From positions 1 through 58,519 of the forward strand of contig JBBTFH010000110.1 of assembly GCA_038041915.1 (NCBI GenBank): a DNA stretch of 58,519 nucleotides. The letters run 5' to 3'. This document shows positions 2,750-31,388 of this stretch, piece after piece. Each line of letters begins with the position of its first letter. Position 1 is the first letter of the stretch. Source of the DNA: Myxococcota bacterium (GTDB taxonomy: Bacteria > Myxococcota_A > Polyangia > JBBTFH01). The notes below the pieces were generated by a model, which saw nothing but the letters and a program-made list of their open reading frames with translations, had not been told where the DNA came from and ran no database searches. A program made the translations under genes and the position numbers.

Positions 2750-3721
2750 TTAGAGGCGCGCCGCGACTTCCGGCGCCTTTCCGAGAAGCCCAAAGATCCC
2801 ACCTGTGTGCAGGAACACGACGCGCGGGCCGAAGGCGTGGCGATCGGCCTCGAGCGTGGTCGCGAGCGCGTGGAAAGCCTTGCCGGTGTAGACGGGGTCG
2901 AGTATCACGCCCTCGGTGCGGGCCGCGTCGACGATGCGGTCGAGCTCCTCGGGCCGCGAGAGCGCGTAGCCGCGGCCGACGAAGCCCTCGATGAGTTCAA
3001 TCGACTCGGGGGCCGCGGCGTGGCCGAGCTCGGCGAGGATGGCGCCGATGACGTTTCGGAAGTACGCGGCGTCGTCGCAGACGCACACGCCGACCAGCCG
3101 CACGTCGTCCGCAAGCAGCAGCGCGCGCCCCAGCAGCAGCCCCGCGCCGGTGCCTCCCGATCCGCACGCGTAGATGACGGTGAACGGGCGCGGGACCTGC
3201 GCGCACAGCTCCTCGAGCGCGGCGACGTAGCCCCACGCGCCGGTCGCGTTCGAGCCGCCTTCGGGGATGACGTACGGGCGGCGACCCTGCGCGCGCAGCT
3301 CGCCGGCGACGCGCGCCATCGCGTCGGTGCGGCGGCGGTATTCGTCGGGCGTGAGCCAGCGGATGTCGGCGCCGGCCATGCGGTCGAGCAGGATGTTCCC
3401 GTCGGGGCTTGGCGGGCGCGAGGGATCGGCGGTGCGGAGCAGCAGGACCGATCGCATGCCCAAGCGCGCGGCGGCGAGCGCCGTGGCGCGCGCGTGGTTC
3501 GACTGCTCGCCCCCGCAGGTGATCAGCGTGTCGGCTTTCCGCGTGAGCGCGTCGGCGAGCAGGAACTCGAGCTTGCGCACCTTGTTGCCCGACAGCTCGG
3601 CGCCGGTCAGGTCGTCGCGCTTGATGAGGAGCTCGACGCCGAGGCGCGCGCCGATCCGCGCGAGCGGCTGCACCGGCGTGGGAAGGCGCGCGAGCTCGAT
3701 GCGGGGCGGGTAGGCGAGCAC
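2750..3721 (-). CDS. PLP-dependent D-cysteine desulfhydrase / ACC deaminase family protein
   Basis: The signatures LPTPVQPL...[24 protein letters not shown]...[14 protein letters not shown] are characteristic of the DcyD/ACC-deaminase fold-type II family. Confidence 0.85.
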
Positions 3722-23234: not shown

Positions 23235-23280
23235 CGGAGCCATCGGCCGGATTTGAACCGGCGACCTGCGGTTTAGGAAA
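23235..23280. repeat. Distal att repeat (tRNA-Thr 3' fragment, copy 1)
   Basis: cggagccatcggccggatttgaaccggcgacctgcggttta is identical to 30614-30654. One mismatch follows at 23276 (the middle anticodon base), then gaaa matches. There is no tRNA 5' half. Confidence 0.9.
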
Positions 23281-23513
23281 TCTTCCTGGCCTCAACCGTC
23301 TCGCATCCTTGCGAGTCGTTCCGCAGCCTTGGCGCATCCCGCCGCCACGTGCCGTCACCCGTCGTCACCGCCGACTTGTGAATCTACTTGTGAACGGGTT
23401 CACGGCCGCACGGAGCGCGACGAGGGCCGCCGCCGGCGATGGAGAAACCGCCCACCGCCATCTCCTCGCGCTCCGCGAGCGGCTCGGGAAACTCCGCCTG
23501 GTGCGCTGAACCG

Positions 23514-23717
23514 TCAGCGCCGCGCGCGGCGGCGGCGGGGCTTCTCGGCGCGCGCTTCTTCCATGAACCGCCGGTGCTCGGGCTCGCGACGCTTCAGATA
23601 CGCGACGAGCCCCTCGACCGTGCCGCCGGCCGCTTCGACCATCTTCGCTCGCCAGCGCCGCACGTCGGCGACGGGCGGTGGGTCGCGGTCAATCACGCTC
23701 TGAGTTCTCGGGGCCAA
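23514..23717 (-). CDS. Hypothetical 67-aa basic protein, possibly the partner of the PIN protein
   Basis: A small ORF overlapping the 3' end of the PIN gene by 29 nt. I recognise no family. Coding status is uncertain at this GC content. Confidence 0.3.
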   Translation of the reverse strand: MAPRTQSVIDRDPPPVADVRRWRAKMVEAAGGTVEGLVAYLKRREPEHRRFMEEARAEKPRRRRARR

Positions 23718-24168
23718 GCAGTTCCTCCGGCGTCACCAACTCCGGGCAGGCATGCCCGCGCAGACGATTGTACTCGCGCACGCGCGCTCGTCGAGAGCCC
23801 GAAGCCATGTGGCGGATGTTCCACGTCACCAGGTAGTCGGCGCCGTGCATCGTCGCGAGCGCGATGTGAAGGGCGTCGGCCACGCTGCCTCCGGGCAGGA
23901 TGCCGGCTTCGATGTATCCCAGCGCCAGACTTGTCACGTCCACTGTCGGCCGGACGACAGCGAACCCGTCGACCAGCCGAAGCAGTTGTCGGCGCCGCAC
24001 CGCCGGCGCACCGGCGACCTCGTCCATGAGGACCGTCGAGACGATGGTCCGGTAGCTCGGCCGTACGCGCGCCCACCACTCGCGCGTGACGCGCTGCCGC
24101 TCGCGCCAGCGACGGTCGAAGTAGGCGTTCGGCACCGACGTGTCGAGGTAGACCAGCTTCGGCTCCAC
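23689..24168 (-). CDS. PIN-domain protein (VapC-like toxin)
   Basis: It shows LVYLDTSVPNAYF...VLMDEV...VADALHIALATMHGADYLVTWNIRH, a PIN acidic-residue pattern with a C-terminal WNxxH motif. Confidence 0.7.
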   Translation of the reverse strand: MEPKLVYLDTSVPNAYFDRRWRERQRVTREWWARVRPSYRTIVSTVLMDEVAGAPAVRRRQLLRLVDGFAVVRPTVDVTSLALGYIEAGILPGGSVADALHIALATMHGADYLVTWNIRHMASGSRRARVREYNRLRGHACPELVTPEELLGPENSERD

Positions 24169-24177
24169 GGCGGCAGA

Positions 24178-24840
24178 CTACCTCCGACCGCGGCGCACCG
24201 CCTGCCTCCGCCTTGCCGAGCGCATCGGCCCGCCCGGCGCCCCACTTCTTCGCGAGGTGCGCGTCGTTCTCGCACGCCCACTACTCGCATGTGGACGCAG
24301 CCGAGCAGCAGGCCGCGGTGGGGCGCGTCGGCCAACTTCTCGGCGGCCAACTTGGGAATCCACTTGTGAATCCCAAGTCGCCGTTTCCGGCCAACAACAA
24401 AAAACAAGCGTGATTCCCGGAGCCATCGGCCGGATTTGAACCGGCGACCTGCGGTTTACGAAGGCGAATCCGCCTTCGTGATCGCGGGCAGTTGGGCAGT
24501 CGTGACGGGCACTTATCGTTGCCGAACGTCGCCAGCCGTCTCGGCCCGTCACGGCGAAGTGGGGGAAGAGGTGGGGGATCGGGGATCGAAGCGACGTGCC
24601 GGTGCGGAGGTCGTAGACGCAACCAACGACCGGGGCCTCCGCCTTCGCGCGCAGCGCCGCCTTCGCGGCGAACATCCGCTCGACCATGCCGGGGTGCAAC
24701 AGCGCCTCGTGGCAGTCGCCGCACACGTCCGCGCGTACGCGCACGAGCGCCACGTCGTCGCCCTCGCGCACGACCCGCTCGACCTCGCGATCCGCTTCCA
24801 ACGTTCCACCGCACAGCGGGCACTTCGACGGCGTGCTCAT
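24178..24840 (-). CDS. YgiT-type zinc-finger protein (MqsA-N-like); only the first ~75 aa are recognisable, and the ORF then runs through att copy 2
   Basis: It begins MSTPSKCPLCGGTLEADREVERVV..GDDVALVRVRADVCGDCHEALL, a CxxC...CxxC YgiT zinc ribbon. The reading frame has no stop until 24178 and crosses 24462-24418, so the C-terminus is probably not native. Confidence 0.5.
   Translation of the reverse strand: MSTPSKCPLCGGTLEADREVERVVREGDDVALVRVRADVCGDCHEALLHPGMVERMFAAKAALRAKAEAPVVGCVYDLRTGTSLRSPIPHLFPHFAVTGRDGWRRSATISARHDCPTARDHEGGFAFVNRRSPVQIRPMAPGITLVFCCWPETATWDSQVDSQVGRREVGRRAPPRPAARLRPHASSGRARTTRTSRRSGAPGGPMRSARRRQAVRRGRR
24273..24413 (+). pseudogene. Tyrosine-integrase C-terminal remnant (copy 2)
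   Basis: The translation HAHYSHVDAAEQQAAVGRV... matches the catalytic-Tyr region (..HYSHV..) of the remnant at 30352-30609. It ends 5 nt before att copy 2. No upstream integrase body is present. Confidence 0.6.
24418..24462. repeat. Internal att repeat (tRNA-Thr 3' fragment, copy 2)
   Basis: These 45 bp are identical to 30614-30658, which runs from the anticodon loop to the discriminator base plus 3 nt. Similarity ends abruptly at 24463. Confidence 0.92.
24552..24581. repeat. 30-bp copy of the integrase-tail segment
   Basis: cggcgaagtgggggaagaggtgggggatcg versus 30540-30569 cggcgaagtgggggatcaggtgggggatcg, with 2 mismatches. The tRNA-proximal copy encodes ..GEVGDQVGDR.. of the integrase remnant. 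Confidence 0.7.
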
Positions 24841-24989
24841 CGTTTCACCCTTCGCCGGAAGTCCGGCGACCATTTCGCCGGGTCCGGCCGGTAGCTCGTG
24901 ACAAGGATAGCACTTCCCGACGGCGCGTCGTACGCCCAGACCGCGTGGATCGGCCGGCCCGGTGTCGCCCGCGAATCAAGCAGCGAGCC

Positions 24990-25262
24990 TTATCGTCGGC
25001 GTCCTGATTCCGGGTTCCACGCGACGGCGGCGATCACGATCCGTCTTTCACTCTCGATCCAGTAGGTGACCCAGAAGTCCCCGAACGAGCAACCGAGCGT
25101 CCCAGGGAGATAGGGGAATGGAAGGAACGACTTCATGCCACCGTCCGCGTGCGGGTTCGCGCAGAGGAGCGAGATCGAACGATAGAATGCGTCCCTGTCG
25201 GGCTTGTTCAGCGCGACGACGAACGACTCGGCCAGCGGGGACAAGTCAACATCAAAGATCAC
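24990..25262 (-). CDS. RelE/ParE-superfamily-like toxin (90 aa)
   Basis: The size and the C-terminal pattern FWVTYWIESERRIVIAAVAW resemble ParE/RelE toxins. The upstream small ORF overlaps by 11 nt. Confidence 0.45.
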   Translation of the reverse strand: MIFDVDLSPLAESFVVALNKPDRDAFYRSISLLCANPHADGGMKSFLPFPYLPGTLGCSFGDFWVTYWIESERRIVIAAVAWNPESGRRR

Positions 25263-25422
25263 CGAGCCGTCTCTTTACGTCTTCAAGTCTTCGGCGGCCA
25301 CCTTCGGCCAACTCCAACTGCCCGCGGATCGTTGACGCGACGAGTTCGGCGTCCCCTGCCATTCTCTGGCCCAAGGTGGCGCCGGTGAGGGGCAGTTCCA
25401 CGAGCATTGGCCAACCCATCAT
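25252..25422 (-). CDS. Putative small antitoxin (56 aa)
   Basis: This is the C-terminal part of track ORF 25252..25623 (MMGWPMLVELPL...LEDVKRRLGDL). It overlaps the start of the RelE/ParE-like gene. The call rests on position only. Confidence 0.3.
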   Translation of the reverse strand: MMGWPMLVELPLTGATLGQRMAGDAELVASTIRGQLELAEGGRRRLEDVKRRLGDL

Positions 25423-25567
25423 CTCGGCGGTCGGGGTTCCCGCCGTGGCCGGCGCAACTGCGAACGCAGCCCCGGCAACCTGCGTCAACTGGTACGCCGA
25501 CGCCAAGCCGTCGGTAGTTCCGGTCCACGACGGCGCCCTCGCTTCCGTGCCAACGGCTCTCATGGAA

Positions 25568-26611
25568 CTAATCATAGCTCCCGTCCCGGGCGGGAAGCCA
25601 GCCCTCAAACAGGACCCTCTCAATTACTTGATCCATCGCAGCCGCAACACCAGCCTGGGGCATCGGTACGCGCAAGATCTCTCTTTGGGTCACGAACACG
25701 TGTTGCGTCAGCACGTTGCCGTCGAGCGACTCAATCGCGGCCCTCTCGTATCGTTTCTCCGCTCTTGGGGCTGACCCGAGATCCAGCGCGGGGCTTGGCG
25801 GTCGAGTGAGCTGGAACCAGTCACGATACTCGACATAAAGATCCCACAGAATCTGCTCTTGGTTCGCCGTGGGTTTCCGCAGCGGCAGCTTGAGGTCCGT
25901 CTTTGCCTCCTCGCGCCCGATCAAGTAGCCGTGGGATGGAACGCCACGCGTCAGACTGTGGACCACCTTTCGGACGTGAGATGCGTCGCGGTCGTGAACT
26001 CGCATGACCTTCGAAGCGAGAGCAGCGTTCTGCTTTCGCGCCCGGAAAACGGCGCCGAGCGCGAGGGGGTGAACGTGGGACGCTAGCAGCTTCAGCACCT
26101 CGATCATGTGCGCTTCGGACTTGATGCCCGCCTCCTCGCGGGCGAGATCGAGAAAACCGATCATATCCTCTACGCTGACCGGAAGTCGGGCAGCTCCGCC
26201 CGAGGGGGAGCCTGGCGCAGCCGGGCTGTACGGCGACGACACGGATGGGTCGACGGGGCTGAGCTGGGCATGTCGGCCAAGTAGGAGTTCGTTGGCGCCC
26301 AGCGCGATCAGGGTCCCGCAGCTCAGAGCTCGGAATGGAACCGCAACGACGAGCCGGCCGCAGTACCGCGTTGCCAGGTCCACAAGGCTCCGCCCGGCAA
26401 CGGGATCGCCACCCACCGTGTAGAGAAAGATCGCGAGCCTCTCTTGGTGACCGATGCGTGCTAGGTGTTCCGAAACGAGCGGGATGGCGTCGCCCGCGAT
26501 CATCGTCTCCAACGAAGAGCGATCCCCAGTCACGAAGCAGAGGACTCGCGCCTCTATTGCTTGCTCAAGATCCCGGACCAACTTCTTCCGCTTCTCGACG
26601 CTCATCGTCAT
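25568..26611 (-). CDS. SDH-family Clp-fold serine proteinase (S49/ClpP-crotonase-like, PF01972-type)
   Basis: The sequence VLCFVTGDRSS...LAIFLYTVGGDPVAGRSLVDL...VVAVPFRALSCGTLIALGANELLLGRHAQLSPVDP matches the 'serine dehydrogenase proteinase' pattern, including the nucleophile Ser in ALSCGT. The gene lies 59 bp downstream of the RM gene on the same strand. Confidence 0.7.
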   Translation of the reverse strand: MTMSVEKRKKLVRDLEQAIEARVLCFVTGDRSSLETMIAGDAIPLVSEHLARIGHQERLAIFLYTVGGDPVAGRSLVDLATRYCGRLVVAVPFRALSCGTLIALGANELLLGRHAQLSPVDPSVSSPYSPAAPGSPSGGAARLPVSVEDMIGFLDLAREEAGIKSEAHMIEVLKLLASHVHPLALGAVFRARKQNAALASKVMRVHDRDASHVRKVVHSLTRGVPSHGYLIGREEAKTDLKLPLRKPTANQEQILWDLYVEYRDWFQLTRPPSPALDLGSAPRAEKRYERAAIESLDGNVLTQHVFVTQREILRVPMPQAGVAAAMDQVIERVLFEGWLPARDGSYD

Positions 26612-26670
26612 CTACTCTACAGGAATCTCAGCTCGTCGGCGCTTGGAATGCAGGTGCCCGAGACGCTCCA

Positions 26671-29600
26671 TTACTCCCCCGTTTCTTGGTCGGGCCTCTC
26701 CACGTCAGCGCCCACACCGCTGCGGGATTCGGCGATCGAATCGTCGATGGCGCGGCGCTCGTCGGGGGTGACTTCGTAGAGGCGGTAGACGCGGTCGTCG
26801 AGTTCGGACTCGACGGCTTCGATCTGGCGGGCGAGGAGGGCTTTGTCGCGGTCGGAGCGGGCGGTGGCGAGGCGGGCGTAGAGGTCGGCGGCGCGCAGCG
26901 CGAGGGCGCCGAGGCCGTCGAGATCGGGGCGGCTCGCCGGGAGGCGGATCGGGAGCAGGTTGATGAAGCGCGCCTCGCACGAGTACCAGCCGCCGCGGAA
27001 CGGCGCCGAGAAGCCCGGGGGCCGGAGCAGCCATTCGAGGAGCTTGCTGTTCAGCAGCGCGAGGAGCGGCGCGGCGTACTCGGGCCTCGCGGGGAGTAGC
27101 CCGTAGCCGCCGGCGGCGCCGCCGAGGACGTAGAAGCTGCCGTCGCGGTCGATCGAGAACGCATTGCGGTCGGCCATGTCCGCGGTCAGGAGCTTCGGCC
27201 GGGAGACGACGTCGAGCGCCTGGCTCCGCCCGAACTGGTACCAGGCGGCGCCGCGGAAACGTCCGCTCTCGCGCGCGTCGAGCGCCTTCTTGTTGTCGAG
27301 CAAGTAGCGCCACGTCTTCGGGTGGTGCCGCTCGAACTCGCCCGGCGGAATTAGCCCCGCCTCTCCGTCGACGACGGAGTAGGGGAACAGGACCGCCTTG
27401 CGTGGTGCGAGCGGCGCAAAGCGCTTCATCTCGCGGCCCTTCACGATCGGCTTGAGCGGCTCCCGTTCGAGGACGACCTCGCGGTCGAGAGCCTTGGAGC
27501 GCACGCGGACGTGCTTGCCCTCGTCGGCGATGACGTCGAGCACGTAGACGGGGTCGAGGCTGGTCTTGAGTCCCTGGAAGACGCGGGGGCAGATCGCGGG
27601 GTCGCCGAGGAACGGCCCCGAGGCGCGCAGGCGATCTAAGAGCGACCGCAGCGACGCGGGGACGCCCAGATACCAGGGTCCACCATCGAGCGCGTCCCAC
27701 CCGATCTTGTGGCAGTACTTGGGAGGCACGTCCGATCCGCGCCTCATCCGCATGACGTCGGGAGACATCCGGAAGTATTCCACGTGCGGCGTCGCCGCCT
27801 TTCTGAAGAACGAGATGCACGTGTAGGTCGTTGGATCCCCGAAGACCTGTTCGTCGGCGAAATCGAAGACCGCCGCGTATTGGCGGGCCTCGGCGACCAG
27901 CCTGCGCAGCGGTGCACCGTAGGTCGCCTTCCACCAGCCGGTCGGCACGATGAAGCCGAGCCGGCCGCCCTCGCGCAGGATCTCCAGGCTGCGCTCGATG
28001 AAAACGACGTAGATGTCGTAGTTACCCTCGGCGGCGGCGCGGTAGCGCTTCTTGTAGAGCTCGACCTCGACGGGCGCCCACTCGTTGAGCGCTTGCACGC
28101 GGATGTACGGCGGGTTGCCGATGACGGCGTCGAAGCCGCTGCGGCCTCCGTCGGCCTCGGGGCGCATGATCGCGCCGAAGCCGGTTTCGTCGGCGTGCCA
28201 GTCAAAGGCGTTGATACGTCGCTCGTCGCTCTCGGTCCACGCGAGCAGCGGATCGAGATCCTGCGTTTCGAGGAGCGAGTTGCCGCAGCGGAGATTGCGC
28301 GACAGGTCGGGGAGGTACTTCGCCGCCTTGAACAGCTCCAACGATCGCTGAAGCGCGAGCGTCTCTTCGGCCTCGTCTTCGAGGAGCTTGAGATACAGGC
28401 TCATCTGCGCGACCTCGACGGCCTGCGCGTCGATGTCGACGCCGTAGAGGCAGCTCGTCAGGATCTCGCGCTTGCGCTGGAGCGTCAGGCGAAGGTTGCC
28501 GTCCTCGTCGACGTAGCAGGCGCCGCGATGCTTCTTCGCCGGGTCCGCTGCCTGCGCATAGAAGCGGAGGTGCCAGTCGATCAAGAACTGGAAGGCGCCG
28601 AGGAGGAACGAGCCGGAGCCGCACGCCGGGTCGACGATGCGCAGTGCCAGCACCTTCTCGGGCGTGGAGCCCTCGACGAGCGGGCCGATCGTGCGCTCGA
28701 CGATCGCGTCGACGATGTAGCGCGGCGTGTAGAAGACGCCGCCGGCGTGGCGGACCTCCGGCTTCTGCTCGATCTTCGCGCGGTGGCCGCCCTCGGTGAC
28801 GCGCACAACGCTGCCGAGGAACTGCTCGTAGACGGCGCCGAGCATCTCGACGGGCATGGCGTCGAAGCGGTACGCGGACTCGGGGAAGTAGAGGCTCTTG
28901 ATGAGCGCCAGCAGGCCGTCGTCGTCGTCGAACTCGGCCTCGTCGGAGAGCGCGTGCGGCGAATAGAGGCCGCCGTTGAACTGCGGCGCGAGGCGCTCGA
29001 ACAGCTCGATGACGTAGCGATAGAGCCGGCGCTTGCCGCCGTCGCGCTCCCAGCGCTCGACCGTGCGCGCGAGCGTGTGGGTGCGCTCGATGCCGCGATC
29101 TTCGGCGACGCGGGCGAACACGAGGCGATCGATGAAGCGCTGGACGGCCTCGGTCAGCTCGGCGCCATCGCGGAAGGTGTTGCGGCGCGCAAGCTCCTTG
29201 GCGACGTCCTCGCGCCAGCGCGTGAGCGATTCGAGAAAGTCGGCGTCAACGGCCTTGGCGCCGCGCGCTTTGAAGAGATCCCGTTCGAGCTGGCCGCGCT
29301 GCCGTACGTTGGCGGCGAGCGCCTCGGCCAGCAGCTTCTCGATCGAGCCCTCGGCGACGGCGTCGCGCGAGAGCACGTCGAAGAGGAGGTCGGACTGGTC
29401 GGCGTAGGCCTCGCAGGTCAGGCAGAGCCGGTCGACGCGGCCGAGCTTCGGTTTGTCGCGGTGCGGCTTGAAGGCGCCGTGGAATGTGAGCAGCTCCTCG
29501 AAGTCCGTCAGCAGGCCGAGCGGCGCGCGCTGGCTCCAGACGTAGCTCTTGAGCTGGTAGGCCGCGTCGACGTCGTTGGCGATGTCGCGCGCCGGCTGCT

Positions 29601-29904
29601 TCGCCTCGACGTAGAACTTCAGCTCGCCGCCGATGTAGAAGCCGTAGTCGGGGCGCTGGCGGTTGCCGCGCCCGGCGCGATCCTCGACGATGACCTCGCG
29701 GCCCTTGCCGACGCGGCGCTGTCCTTCCTTCACGAGCCAGCCGAGCGCCTCGAAGAACGGGTCGATGAACCCCGCGCGCACCTTGGCCTCGTCGTAGCGG
29801 CGGGGGTCCTTGAACACGGACTTGCCCTTCTCGAACTCGGAGACGAGCTTCGCGATCGTGTCCTTCGCCCCCTCGCGGCTCGACGGTGTCGACGGGTTGT
29901 GCAT
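26671..29904 (-). CDS. Type IIG restriction-modification enzyme (fused PD-(D/E)xK nuclease, gamma-class N6-adenine methyltransferase and specificity domain; Eco57I/MmeI-like)
   Basis: The N-terminal nuclease motif is RPDYGFY...LKFYVEAKQP. The SAM-binding motif is IVDPACGSGSFLLGAF. The catalytic motif is VIGNPPYIRVQ. A long C-terminal region serves target recognition. The 1077-aa frame is uninterrupted. Confidence 0.88.
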   Translation of the reverse strand: MHNPSTPSSREGAKDTIAKLVSEFEKGKSVFKDPRRYDEAKVRAGFIDPFFEALGWLVKEGQRRVGKGREVIVEDRAGRGNRQRPDYGFYIGGELKFYVEAKQPARDIANDVDAAYQLKSYVWSQRAPLGLLTDFEELLTFHGAFKPHRDKPKLGRVDRLCLTCEAYADQSDLLFDVLSRDAVAEGSIEKLLAEALAANVRQRGQLERDLFKARGAKAVDADFLESLTRWREDVAKELARRNTFRDGAELTEAVQRFIDRLVFARVAEDRGIERTHTLARTVERWERDGGKRRLYRYVIELFERLAPQFNGGLYSPHALSDEAEFDDDDGLLALIKSLYFPESAYRFDAMPVEMLGAVYEQFLGSVVRVTEGGHRAKIEQKPEVRHAGGVFYTPRYIVDAIVERTIGPLVEGSTPEKVLALRIVDPACGSGSFLLGAFQFLIDWHLRFYAQAADPAKKHRGACYVDEDGNLRLTLQRKREILTSCLYGVDIDAQAVEVAQMSLYLKLLEDEAEETLALQRSLELFKAAKYLPDLSRNLRCGNSLLETQDLDPLLAWTESDERRINAFDWHADETGFGAIMRPEADGGRSGFDAVIGNPPYIRVQALNEWAPVEVELYKKRYRAAAEGNYDIYVVFIERSLEILREGGRLGFIVPTGWWKATYGAPLRRLVAEARQYAAVFDFADEQVFGDPTTYTCISFFRKAATPHVEYFRMSPDVMRMRRGSDVPPKYCHKIGWDALDGGPWYLGVPASLRSLLDRLRASGPFLGDPAICPRVFQGLKTSLDPVYVLDVIADEGKHVRVRSKALDREVVLEREPLKPIVKGREMKRFAPLAPRKAVLFPYSVVDGEAGLIPPGEFERHHPKTWRYLLDNKKALDARESGRFRGAAWYQFGRSQALDVVSRPKLLTADMADRNAFSIDRDGSFYVLGGAAGGYGLLPARPEYAAPLLALLNSKLLEWLLRPPGFSAPFRGGWYSCEARFINLLPIRLPASRPDLDGLGALALRAADLYARLATARSDRDKALLARQIEAVESELDDRVYRLYEVTPDERRAIDDSIAESRSGVGADVERPDQETGE

Positions 29905-29906
29905 CG

Positions 29907-30239
29907 CTACTCGTCGATCGGAGCGAGGTGGTAGATCGGCCGGAGCGGCAAGAGGCGCCGTGCGGCCTCATCGAGCTTGCCGTAGTTCTCGGTCCAGAGT
30001 TCGACCAGGCGCTCCAGATCGACGAGTGTGATCTGCCGCTGCTCGCGGTGGCGCGCGAACGTCTCGGCGTCCTTCGTGAAGCCGGACGGGTACGTCGCAC
30101 GCTCGTACTGCGTCGGCGCCACGACCTCCGCGAGGGCGACAAGCGTGTCCTTTGCTTGCATGCCGTCGGGATGCGCCATGAGGATCTCGAACAGCTTCCG
30201 CAGGAACTCGCCCGTCCGACGACGCGTGATCTCAGCCAT
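29907..30239 (-). CDS. Mrr-like protein lacking the catalytic core (Mrr_N winged helix joined to the extreme C-terminal tail)
   Basis: The N-terminus reads MAEITRRRTGEFLRKLFEILMAHPDGMQAKDTL..., resembling an Mrr N-terminal wHTH. The end reads ITLVDLERLVELWTENYGKLDEAARRLLPLRPIYHLAP, resembling the tail that follows Mrr_cat domains. At 110 aa there is no room for a nuclease domain. The stop lies 2 nt before the RM start. Confidence 0.5.
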   Translation of the reverse strand: MAEITRRRTGEFLRKLFEILMAHPDGMQAKDTLVALAEVVAPTQYERATYPSGFTKDAETFARHREQRQITLVDLERLVELWTENYGKLDEAARRLLPLRPIYHLAPIDE

Positions 30240-30310
30240 GCCGGTCCTCCACGACGGCGCCGCCGCGCCGGCCGCCGGACGATAGCCAACAGCGCGCCGC
30301 GAGGGAAGGA

Positions 30311-30350
30311 CGAGGGTCCGAGGGTCCGAGGGTCCGAGGGTTCGAGCGAG
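30311..30350. repeat. 8-bp tandem repeat (cgagggtc x3 perfect plus 2 degenerate units)
   Basis: The units are cgagggtc cgagggtc cgagggtc cgagggtt cgagcgag. The array lies between the Mrr-like gene start and the integrase remnant. Confidence 0.9.
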
Positions 30351-30351
30351 G

Positions 30352-30609
30352 AGTCGTGCTTGGAGTCGGCTACTCGCGGCGGAGCTGACGTTCAACAACC
30401 TCGCGCAGCAGGTCACGTCGGGCGAGGTCGTCCGCGCGATCACGGGGCACGTCACGGCCGCGATGACCGAGCACTACTCGCACGTGGACGCGGGCGAAAA
30501 ACACGCGGCCGTGGTGCGCGTTCTGCGCCTCGTTCACGCCGGCGAAGTGGGGGATCAGGTGGGGGATCGCGTCGAGGAGCCGAGAGCCGCGGGAGCGAAA
30601 GCCGAATGA
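30352..30609 (+). pseudogene. Tyrosine-integrase C-terminal remnant (copy 1, frameshifted and truncated)
   Basis: The frame ending at TGA 30607-09 reads ..LTFNNLAQQVTSGEVVRAITGHVTAAMTEHYSHVDAGEKHAAVVRVL.., the box II / catalytic Tyr region. The expected RR(S/T)F motif just upstream is in another frame (tcg cgg cgg agc TGA). There is no N-terminal or core-binding part. Confidence 0.7.
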
Positions 30610-30616
30610 TCCTCGG

Positions 30617-30688
30617 AGCCATCGGCCGGATTTGAACCGGCGACCTGCGGTTTACGAAACCGCTGCTCTACCCCTGAGCTACGATGGC
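30617..30688 (-). tRNA. tRNA-Thr (anticodon CGT)
   Basis: The reverse complement folds as a perfect cloverleaf: GCCATCG TA GCTC AGGGGTA GAGC A GCGGT TTCGTAA ACCGC AGGTC GCCGG TTCAAAT CCGGC CGATGGC T. It is 72 nt long and the CCA tail is not fully encoded (CCG). Confidence 0.93.
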
Positions 30689-30740: not shown

Positions 30741-31388
30741 TCAGCGCACTCGGGTCCAGCGACGCTGCGCGGGGTCGAGCGCGGGGCCGGCGTCGGCGCC
30801 GGCGTCGAGGATCGCCCACACGGCGCCGCGCACGAACGACGGCAGCACGGGGCCGAAGTCGCGGCTGTCGAAGGCCTCGCTGCGGTTGTCGGCGAGCACG
30901 AAGTAGCCTTCGGCGAGGCGCTGCTTCGCCGCGCCGGCCGCGCGGGCTTTCGGCGACCGCAGCGTCCGCACGGCGCGCTCGCCGAGGTGCTCGATCTCGA
31001 GCGTGTAGACCGCGTCGCCGAGCGGCCGGCCGTCTTTGCCGATGTGCCGCAGCACCATCTCGCCGGCGCGCTCGCGCCGCGCGGGCTCGCCGTCCAGGAT
31101 GACCGCGCCTTCCTTCACCGCGATCGTCTCCCCGGGTAGGGCCACGACGCGGCGGATCAGGAAGCGCTCGGGCTGGCGTGGGTGCCGCAGCATCACGACG
31201 TCGCCACGTTCGACCTGCGAGAACAGCCGGCTTACGAGCACGAGATCGCCGGCGACGACGGCGGGCGCCATCTCGTTGCCCTGCACGCGCACGAAATCGA
31301 ACACGTAGAGTTTGGCGACGATCGACCCGACGCCGAGCAGCATCGCGAGCACGAAGACACGCGTCAGCACGAGGTGACGGCCTCCCAC
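30741..31388 (-). CDS. Signal peptidase I (S26) homologue with both catalytic residues substituted
   Basis: One N-terminal TM segment is present. Box B reads QGNEMAP where G-x-S-M-x-P is expected. Box D reads IRRVVALPGE where K-R-x-x-G-x-P-G-D is expected. Box E is conserved (LADNRSEAFDSRDFGPV). The gene overlaps the thiE 3' end by 25 nt, or starts at the internal Met at 31343. Confidence 0.75.
   Translation of the reverse strand: MGGRHLVLTRVFVLAMLLGVGSIVAKLYVFDFVRVQGNEMAPAVVAGDLVLVSRLFSQVERGDVVMLRHPRQPERFLIRRVVALPGETIAVKEGAVILDGEPARRERAGEMVLRHIGKDGRPLGDAVYTLEIEHLGERAVRTLRSPKARAAGAAKQRLAEGYFVLADNRSEAFDSRDFGPVLPSFVRGAVWAILDAGADAGPALDPAQRRWTRVR

Follow-up and report, generated by a model that had tools for sequence, protein, structure and literature searches.

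We describe a region at the gene for tRNA-Thr(CGT) on contig JBBTFH010000110.1 (C110; 58,519 bp, called the window when meant at its full length), which belongs to GCA_038041915.1, a metagenome-assembled genome (MAG) of an uncultured bacterium of the Polyangia comprising 318 contigs and 3.39 Mb and estimated to be 83% complete. Our results indicate, with a probability of roughly 0.85, that two related but distinct integrative elements of a single Polyangia-wide family were successively inserted at this gene and then decayed, leaving them complete for their attachment (att) sites and devoid of an integrase. The target would have been the site that extends from the anticodon loop to the 3′ end of tRNA-Thr(CGT), and every insertion would have restored the tRNA gene while displacing the prior 3′ fragment outward, resulting in the order attA, island D (1.1 kb), attB, island P (6.15 kb) and attC/tRNA. 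Island D denotes here positions 23280-24417 (1138 bp) and island P positions 24463-30613 (6151 bp). Each of the two islands has a tRNA fragment, a diverged integrase remnant and an arm motif of its own, and neither integrase is intact.

The tRNA gene and the copies of its 3′ part are located as follows:

30615-30688, minus strand: tRNA-Thr(CGT) gene, the sole tRNA gene in the window (ARAGORN)
30614-30658, minus strand: att copy C, core inside the restored, intact tRNA gene, plus 1 nt (ARAGORN, repeat finder, blastn)
24418-24462, minus strand: att copy B, the junction of islands D and P, 45/45 identical (repeat finder, blastn)
23235-23279, minus strand: att copy A, a displaced tRNA-Thr 3′ fragment forming the outer boundary of island D, 44/45 identical

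The repeat finder and blastn place all three copies in direct orientation, and the coordinates and counts given for them in the preliminary description of this DNA, which was made from the letters alone, are correct. The identity block opens with the first base of the 7-nt anticodon loop (TTCGTAA) and extends through the discriminator and the following CCG; this corresponds to an anticodon-centred (class A) crossover and agrees with the anticodon-loop sublocation proposed in that description. The mismatch in copy A, at position 23276, is a C to G change on the plus strand that falls on the middle anticodon base (CGT to CCT in the tRNA sense), and base 23280, just past the copy, again agrees with the tRNA. 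According to the Islander paper (Hudson, Lau & Williams 2015, PMC4383910), an island restores the tRNA gene (tDNA) that it splits and the displaced fragment marks its far end; here the intact gene is accompanied by two fragments of the same tRNA in direct orientation, with 45/45 and 44/45 identical positions. The gene at 30615-30688 is the only one for the CGT isoacceptor found in the assembly, and no further copy of the core was detected across the 318 contigs, the next best blastn matches being 12-18 nt long. A perfect 9-bp stem (ACGAAGGCG / CGCCTTCGT) was observed at 24458-24479; it begins within the anticodon-loop end of att copy B and is not followed by a T-run. Across the island region, no noteworthy sigma-70-like promoter or intrinsic terminator was found.

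Directly upstream of att copies B and C lie two short integrase remnants:

30370-30609, plus strand: integrase stub P, the last ~75 amino acids (aa) of a ~390-aa tyrosine integrase (..TFNNLAQQVTSGEVVRAITGHVTAAMTEHYSHVDAGEKHAAVV.., including MTEHYSHVD)
24237-24413, plus strand: integrase stub D, C-terminal ~45-50 aa of a tyrosine integrase (..HAHYSHVDAAEQQAAVGRV.., including HAHYSHVD)

The stop codon of stub P lies 4 nt ahead of core C and that of stub D 4 nt ahead of core B. In alignments, the homology of stub P begins right after the HGLRR (HxxR) motif and retains the GH and HYSH (catalytic Tyr) motifs, whereas stub D retains integrase sequence only from HYSHV onward, which corresponds to a loss of ~80% and ~88% of the integrase gene, respectively. 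The two stubs are 80% identical over 50 nt and 46% identical at the protein level, and stub P matches the integrase family phrog_1 (E = 0.002). Comparison with intact integrases, which the preliminary description had advised for its two C-terminal stubs, was carried out by a six-frame search with stub P of 301 same-class genomes, among them the one that contains the window. Relatives were found in 54 of the 300 other genomes, with 55-72% identity and mostly at the C-terminus of 380-480-aa open frames. Two full-length relatives match Phage_integrase PF00589 (E = 1e-20 and 3e-26), Phage_int_SAM_3 and Phage_int_M, and no Pfam match was obtained for the N-terminal ~60 residues of the full-length relatives. 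On these alignments, both stubs are true C-terminal remnants of tyrosine integrases. At 22 of the 29 homologue loci, the integrase 3′ end faces a convergent tRNA gene at a distance of no more than a few dozen bases, and the same holds for convergent tRNAs at 9 of 11 further loci in Polyangia and Myxococcales; the tRNAs adjoining integrases of this family are Gly, Cys, Leu, Ala and Pro. A split integrase of the SSV type, with attP inside int, was considered and rejected given the stop codon 4 nt before the core and the lack of any N-terminal fragment on the contig in searches with full-length queries.

Short repeat pairs were found at both ends of each island:

23374-23394, plus strand: distal-arm pair of island D, ACTTGTGAA-N3-ACTTGTGAA with 12-bp spacing, putative arm-type integrase sites
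24350-24370, plus strand: proximal-arm pair of island D, ACTTGGGAA-N3-ACTTGTGAA, inside stub D, putative arm-type sites
24559-24579, plus strand: distal-arm pair of island P, GTGGGGGA-N4-GTGGGGGAT, putative arm-type sites
30547-30567, plus strand: proximal-arm pair of island P, GTGGGGGAT-N3-GTGGGGGAT, inside stub P and encoding ..VGDQVGD.., putative arm-type sites

On both strands of the window, the 8-mer GTGGGGGA occurs four times, at 24559, 24571, 30547 and 30559, that is, as two 12-bp-spaced pairs with one at each end of island P. The paired pattern has two matches in the window where shuffling predicts none, and elsewhere in the genome only single copies of the 8-mer occur. The motif of island D, ACTTGKGAA (ACTTG[T/G]GAA), is likewise present as one pair per end (23374/23386 and 24350/24362), its paired pattern again giving two matches in the window against an expectation of zero by shuffling. 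We compared the distances between these pairs and the att cores with those of elements from other Polyangia genomes (G039, G213 and G028), searching regions of up to 20 kb around full-length integrases and inspecting ten relatives:

Island P: proximal pair 67 and 55 bp before the tRNA-side core C, distal pair 97 and 109 bp after the far core B
Island D: proximal pair 68 and 56 bp before core B, distal pair 95 and 107 bp after the far core A
G039 element at tRNA-Cys: intact island of 10.3 kb with a 44-nt att repeat and a 387-aa integrase (PF00589), proximal pair at 69/57 bp, distal pair at 95/107 bp, motif AACGGGTCA
G213 element at tRNA-Cys: intact island of 7.5 kb with a full integrase and a 46-nt repeat, proximal pair at 93/81 bp, distal pair at 89/101 bp, motif AAGGGGTGG
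G028 element at tRNA-Gly: 23-nt partial att repeat, second proximal copy 76 bp before the tRNA 3′ end, distal pair at 98/110 bp, motif GTGGAAG

In all ten relatives the integrase tail contains a pair with a spacing of 11-12 bp, the second copy of which lies 54-90 bp from the tRNA end, and the GTGGGGGAT motif of island P also occurs in three tRNA-Leu elements of other Polyangia. Since the position of the pairs is conserved while their sequence is element-specific, as in a lambda-like attP, we interpret them as putative arm-type binding sites of a lambda-like (heterobivalent) integrase. At both islands, repeats unlike the core are present on both arms, as expected of a heterobivalent att site. 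Each island would in this way keep a complete attL and attR without an integrase. The divergence of the stubs and the different arm motifs also lead us to regard islands D and P as independent elements rather than products of a duplication. More broadly, it is conceivable, albeit doubtful, that the family has an unusual coupling, with arm-type sites that lie within the codons of its own C-terminal tail and co-vary between elements.

Two further loci with such repeats were noted. At the tRNA-Cys locus of G039 (contig C4, ~3250-3400; L055), a second and more distal copy of the far arm (AAACGGGTAAGTCAACGGGATCG) in the same upstream context suggests that tandem accretion took place there. In the genome that contains the window, another contig (C117, 12999-13750; L007) carries a third stub of the family that adjoins tRNA-Gly(CCC), shares 64% identity with stub P and has its own 12-bp-spaced pair, AGTAGGGGATC in two copies. 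Single CCCCTACTT motifs and 11 nt of tRNA at ~19270-19340 of C117 represent a possible degenerate far end, and a neighbouring radical-SAM gene (CxxxCxxC, ..SACDAECTFCF..) might be viperin-like.

Regarding the order of events, island D would have been inserted first and island P would then have entered the regenerated gene, the outermost fragment A being the original 3′ end of the tRNA. Island D is thus most likely the older of the two, because the standard tDNA-island model puts the displaced fragment at the far end. The single substitution in copy A is weakly consistent with relaxed selection. Alternatively, the array could have been built elsewhere and have arrived as a composite, or island D could have been inserted second into the distal att site of P, in which cases the inner islands would not be the newer ones. 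Tandem elements can in principle excise and transfer jointly, and dating from the cores is weak given that B and C are identical and A differs by a single base. On the other hand, the outer att sites A and C have unlike arms (ACTTGKGAA and GTGGGGGA), which makes it unlikely that one integrase moved a composite, and a normal attB provides a tRNA 5′ half-site that is missing from the distal att copies. We consider this alternative unlikely.

A second alternative involves three or more integrations, the pair at 24559-24579 being the tail of a third, nearly entirely deleted integrase that has lost its own att site. The preliminary description had in fact listed 24552-24581 as a third copy of the integrase tail, and the 30-bp similarity between this segment and 30540-30569 is genuine. 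Moreover, the in-frame translation of 24559-24579, HGEVGEEVGDR..RAGAE, resembles the tail of stub P, HAGEVGDQVGDR..RAAGAKAE (62% identity over 16 aa, E = 4.1), and the extra, more distal arm copy in G039 suggests multi-element arrays there. Yet this likeness between peptides follows automatically from the shared DNA repeats, no att core follows the pair, no integrase similarity was found upstream of it, and its distance of 97 bp after core B compares well with 95 bp in island D and 89-98 bp in the islands of G039, G213 and G028. Because island D and the intact relatives have an equivalent pair at a like distance from the core, we take the segment at 24552-24581 to be most probably the far arm of island P and not what is left of a third integrase, and a third integration appears very unlikely. 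Finally, although the source is a fragmented short-read MAG, it is highly improbable that the repeats are segmental duplications or assembly artefacts unrelated to site-specific integration, as they correspond exactly to the tRNA 3′ part from the anticodon loop onward, each is preceded by the integrase C-terminus of a tRNA-targeting family, the stubs have diverged (~80% nucleotide identity) while the cores remained identical, the arm pairs are element-specific, and repeats of 45-52 bp are shorter than typical assembly k-mers.

Several observations weigh against the succession of two integrations followed by decay that we favour. Stub P scores 12.8 bits against PF00589 (positions 139-170), below the cut-off of 27.1, stub D has no Pfam match, and we infer the binding of the repeat pairs by an integrase from their position and covariation. 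Among the relatives, no member of the family was found at tRNA-Thr(CGT), and the integrase of an island that occupies this gene in G028, full length at ~390 aa, belongs to another subfamily that is 27-29% identical to the stub family. In a fragmented short-read MAG, an intact integrase could sit in the missing 17% and assembly errors are formally possible. All 40 comparison genomes are related at the class level only, exact-sequence look-ups of the flanking lipoprotein and LepB-like protein for further assemblies returned no record, a search of metagenomes with the LepB-like protein yielded 227 pattern matches and no relative, and an exact 36-nt att pattern had no match in either metagenome contigs or genome contigs.

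The island of G028 just mentioned (locus L038) is intact, measures 5.3 kb and is flanked by a 46-nt repeat of tRNA positions 29-74; the tRNA-Thr(CGT) site is therefore used within the class. On the 5′ side of this tRNA, the arrangement thiSG-thiE-(lepB)-tRNA-Thr(CGT) is kept in 4 of 16 relatives. The 3′ side is variable among the class-level relatives, where recA, sixA and the lipoprotein gene were never found within 10 kb of it. Beside the tRNA in the window, a signal-peptidase-I-like gene (30741-31388; TIGR02227, 94.7 bits) encodes ..QGNEMAP.. at the expected catalytic Ser box.

The genes of island D are the following:

23689-24168, minus strand: PIN-domain protein of 159 aa (PF01850, 33.9 bits, cut-off 23.6)
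23514-23717, minus strand: 67-aa open reading frame (ORF) overlapping the 3′ end of the PIN gene, possible partner or antitoxin

Upstream of the PIN gene, where the space is taken by stub D, there is no antitoxin-sized ORF, and the sole candidate partner is the downstream overlapping 67-aa ORF, for which profile searches returned no family match. Reading of the PIN protein sequence indicates that its motif ..LVTWNIRH.. may have an Asn at the usual fourth acidic residue.

Island P contains the following features:

24583-24840, minus strand: YgiT-type zinc-finger protein (TIGR03831, 31.8 bits, cut-off 20.2)
24990-25262, minus strand: 90-aa protein with a predicted RelE/ParE fold (AlphaFold2 model, mean predicted local distance difference test score 94.3)
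25252-25623, minus strand: 123-aa ORF upstream of and overlapping the RelE-fold gene, no family
25568-26611, minus strand: SDH-family Clp-fold serine protease of 347 aa (PF01972, 36.3 bits; phrog_11747, E = 7e-33)
26671-29904, minus strand: type IIG restriction-modification enzyme, 1077 aa, full length (PADLOC PDLC03604, E = 1.6e-198)
29907-30239, minus strand: Mrr remnant of 110 aa, with a Mrr_N-like N-terminal ~50 aa and the last ~50 aa of a Mrr/PDC-S02-type nuclease
30311-30346: 8-bp tandem repeat CGAGGGTC in 4.5 copies, lying in the 128 bp that separate the Mrr remnant from stub P, a presumed deletion junction

The preliminary description had characterized the cargo as conflict-type, and profile searches together with the predicted fold corroborate this for the PIN, RelE-fold and YgiT-finger proteins, the SDH-family protease, the full-length type IIG enzyme and the Mrr remnant. 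The zinc-finger protein matches only positions 1-75 of 127 of the MqsA model, the helix-turn-helix half being absent. Its open frame extends across att B to 24178, and this extension is probably non-coding because the GC content at third codon positions falls from 0.90 to 0.63 beyond the homology. The 90-aa protein has no sequence-profile match and was an orphan by word search, and a full HMMER search recovered ~20 homologues of 90-97 aa; the best Foldseek matches of its model are RelE of Thermus thermophilus and Mycobacterium tuberculosis (template modelling scores of 0.72-0.82). As judged from the model, this protein carries a RelE/ParE fold, an assignment that concerns the fold only. The overlapping 123-aa ORF, with a weak match to phrog_35875 (E = 0.015) and otherwise no family, may be its antitoxin. 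In the type IIG enzyme, residues 13-1049 align with positions 6-1000 of 1011 of PDLC03604 and the Pfam domains Eco57I, N6_Mtase and HSDR_N are found, so that a nuclease, a gamma-class N6-adenine methyltransferase and a target recognition region are predicted in one polypeptide. The N-terminal half of the Mrr remnant matches Mrr_N-bearing proteins, and for its C-terminal half similarity is confined to the final ~50 residues of Mrr/PDC-S02 proteins of ~330 aa, which corresponds to an internal deletion of the nuclease core. The nearby 8-bp tandem repeat may mark a deletion or have arisen by slippage. The GC content of island P is 0.67 (0.60 in the RelE-like gene and 0.625 in the SDH-family gene) compared to 0.706 for the genome. 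We also observed that the intact 7.5-kb island of the family in G213 (contig C49, 5464-8622; L065) encodes a 1052-aa LanM-like class II lanthipeptide synthetase (DUF4135 and LANC_like), which indicates that cargo in the family is not confined to defence genes.

Following the two integrations, internal deletions would have removed ~80-88% of each integrase gene, the nuclease core of Mrr and probably other genes. What would have been left over are the PIN and RelE/YgiT toxin-antitoxin-type genes, the SDH-family protease and the intact type IIG enzyme. Stub P may have survived because deletions cannot enter the essential tRNA gene, an argument that is not valid for stub D. The preliminary description regarded the islands as locked in place, and this view holds in part. 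No intact integrase of the family was found in the 83%-complete assembly, full-length queries matching only the C-terminal fragments on C110 and C117, and the remaining PF00589 genes of the assembly are Xer-like or distant. Without an integrase, self-excision should be impossible, and any movement of the islands would require that a cognate integrase be provided in trans. Such trans-mobilization by a related integrase would in principle be possible given the complete attL and attR, which are kept, as in cis-mobilizable elements, in the presence of integrase stubs alone and without an integrase or excisionase gene. We consider it doubtful, albeit conceivable, that these islets are functional cis-mobilizable cassettes rather than dead scars, in which case an incoming element with matching arm specificity would excise them and carry along the defence cargo.

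The locus is a decayed case of a common and known type of scar, the tandem tRNA island, and changes no general concept. It provides a clean example of tRNA-borne defence islands accreting in tandem and then decaying in a little-studied, uncultured lineage of Polyangia. Of the islands catalogued by Islander (PMC4383910), 2083 of 3919 have a class A, anticodon-centred attP, the sublocation classes being those of Williams 2002 (cited in the same paper), and tandem arrays at one tDNA comprise at least two islands in 125 cases and at least three in 4. The islands described here share with them the regenerated tDNA and displaced 3′ fragment at their ends, the anticodon-centred attP, the location of the integrase next to the tDNA and probably the tandem organization. 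They differ in that Islander requires a PF00589-positive integrase per island, whereas only C-terminal remnants of 45-75 aa are present here and a whole-genome PF00589 scan returned no match on C110. They are also unusually small (1.1 and 6.15 kb). For both reasons, pipelines of the Islander type would miss them, and integrase-based island finders overlook such islets.

Cis-mobilizable elements (CIMEs) derived from integrative and conjugative elements (ICEs) such as ICESt1 and ICESt3 of Streptococcus thermophilus constitute a second point of comparison. Like CIMEs, the islands of C110 have functional-looking attL and attR flanks, have lost their own recombination genes, are found in tandem with related elements and appear to result from accretion followed by deletion. 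Unlike CIMEs, they target a tRNA gene, derive from an uncharacterized integrase family of Polyangia and show no sign of an ICE origin or of trans-mobilization. They illustrate that the att architecture, core and arm repeats together, can outlast the integrase. Within the class, the island of G028 at the same tRNA shares the target, the sublocation and an integrase 3′ end that abuts the tRNA 3′ end; it differs by its arm repeats (ATTGGTCAACG), of which one far-arm copy is inverted, and by its cargo, a trypsin-like protease and a repeat lipoprotein.

Heterobivalent attP sites with arm-type sites are known from lambda and from mycobacteriophage L5. The putative attP of the Polyangia elements resembles these in having a core with arms of ~70-120 bp, element-specific short direct repeats unlike the core and a total length of ~230 bp. 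Unlike in lambda and L5, the 3′ coding end of int harbours one of the arm pairs, which there encodes a G-D-x-V-G-D-type tail, and the spacing of these putative sites is strictly 11-12 bp. The modest novelty of the locus lies in the att architecture of an uncharacterized Polyangia integrase family and in the corrected reading of the third repeat. The comparative geometry of these sites provides a testable attP definition for a widespread family of myxobacterial integrases, and could serve the construction of integration vectors for myxobacteria.

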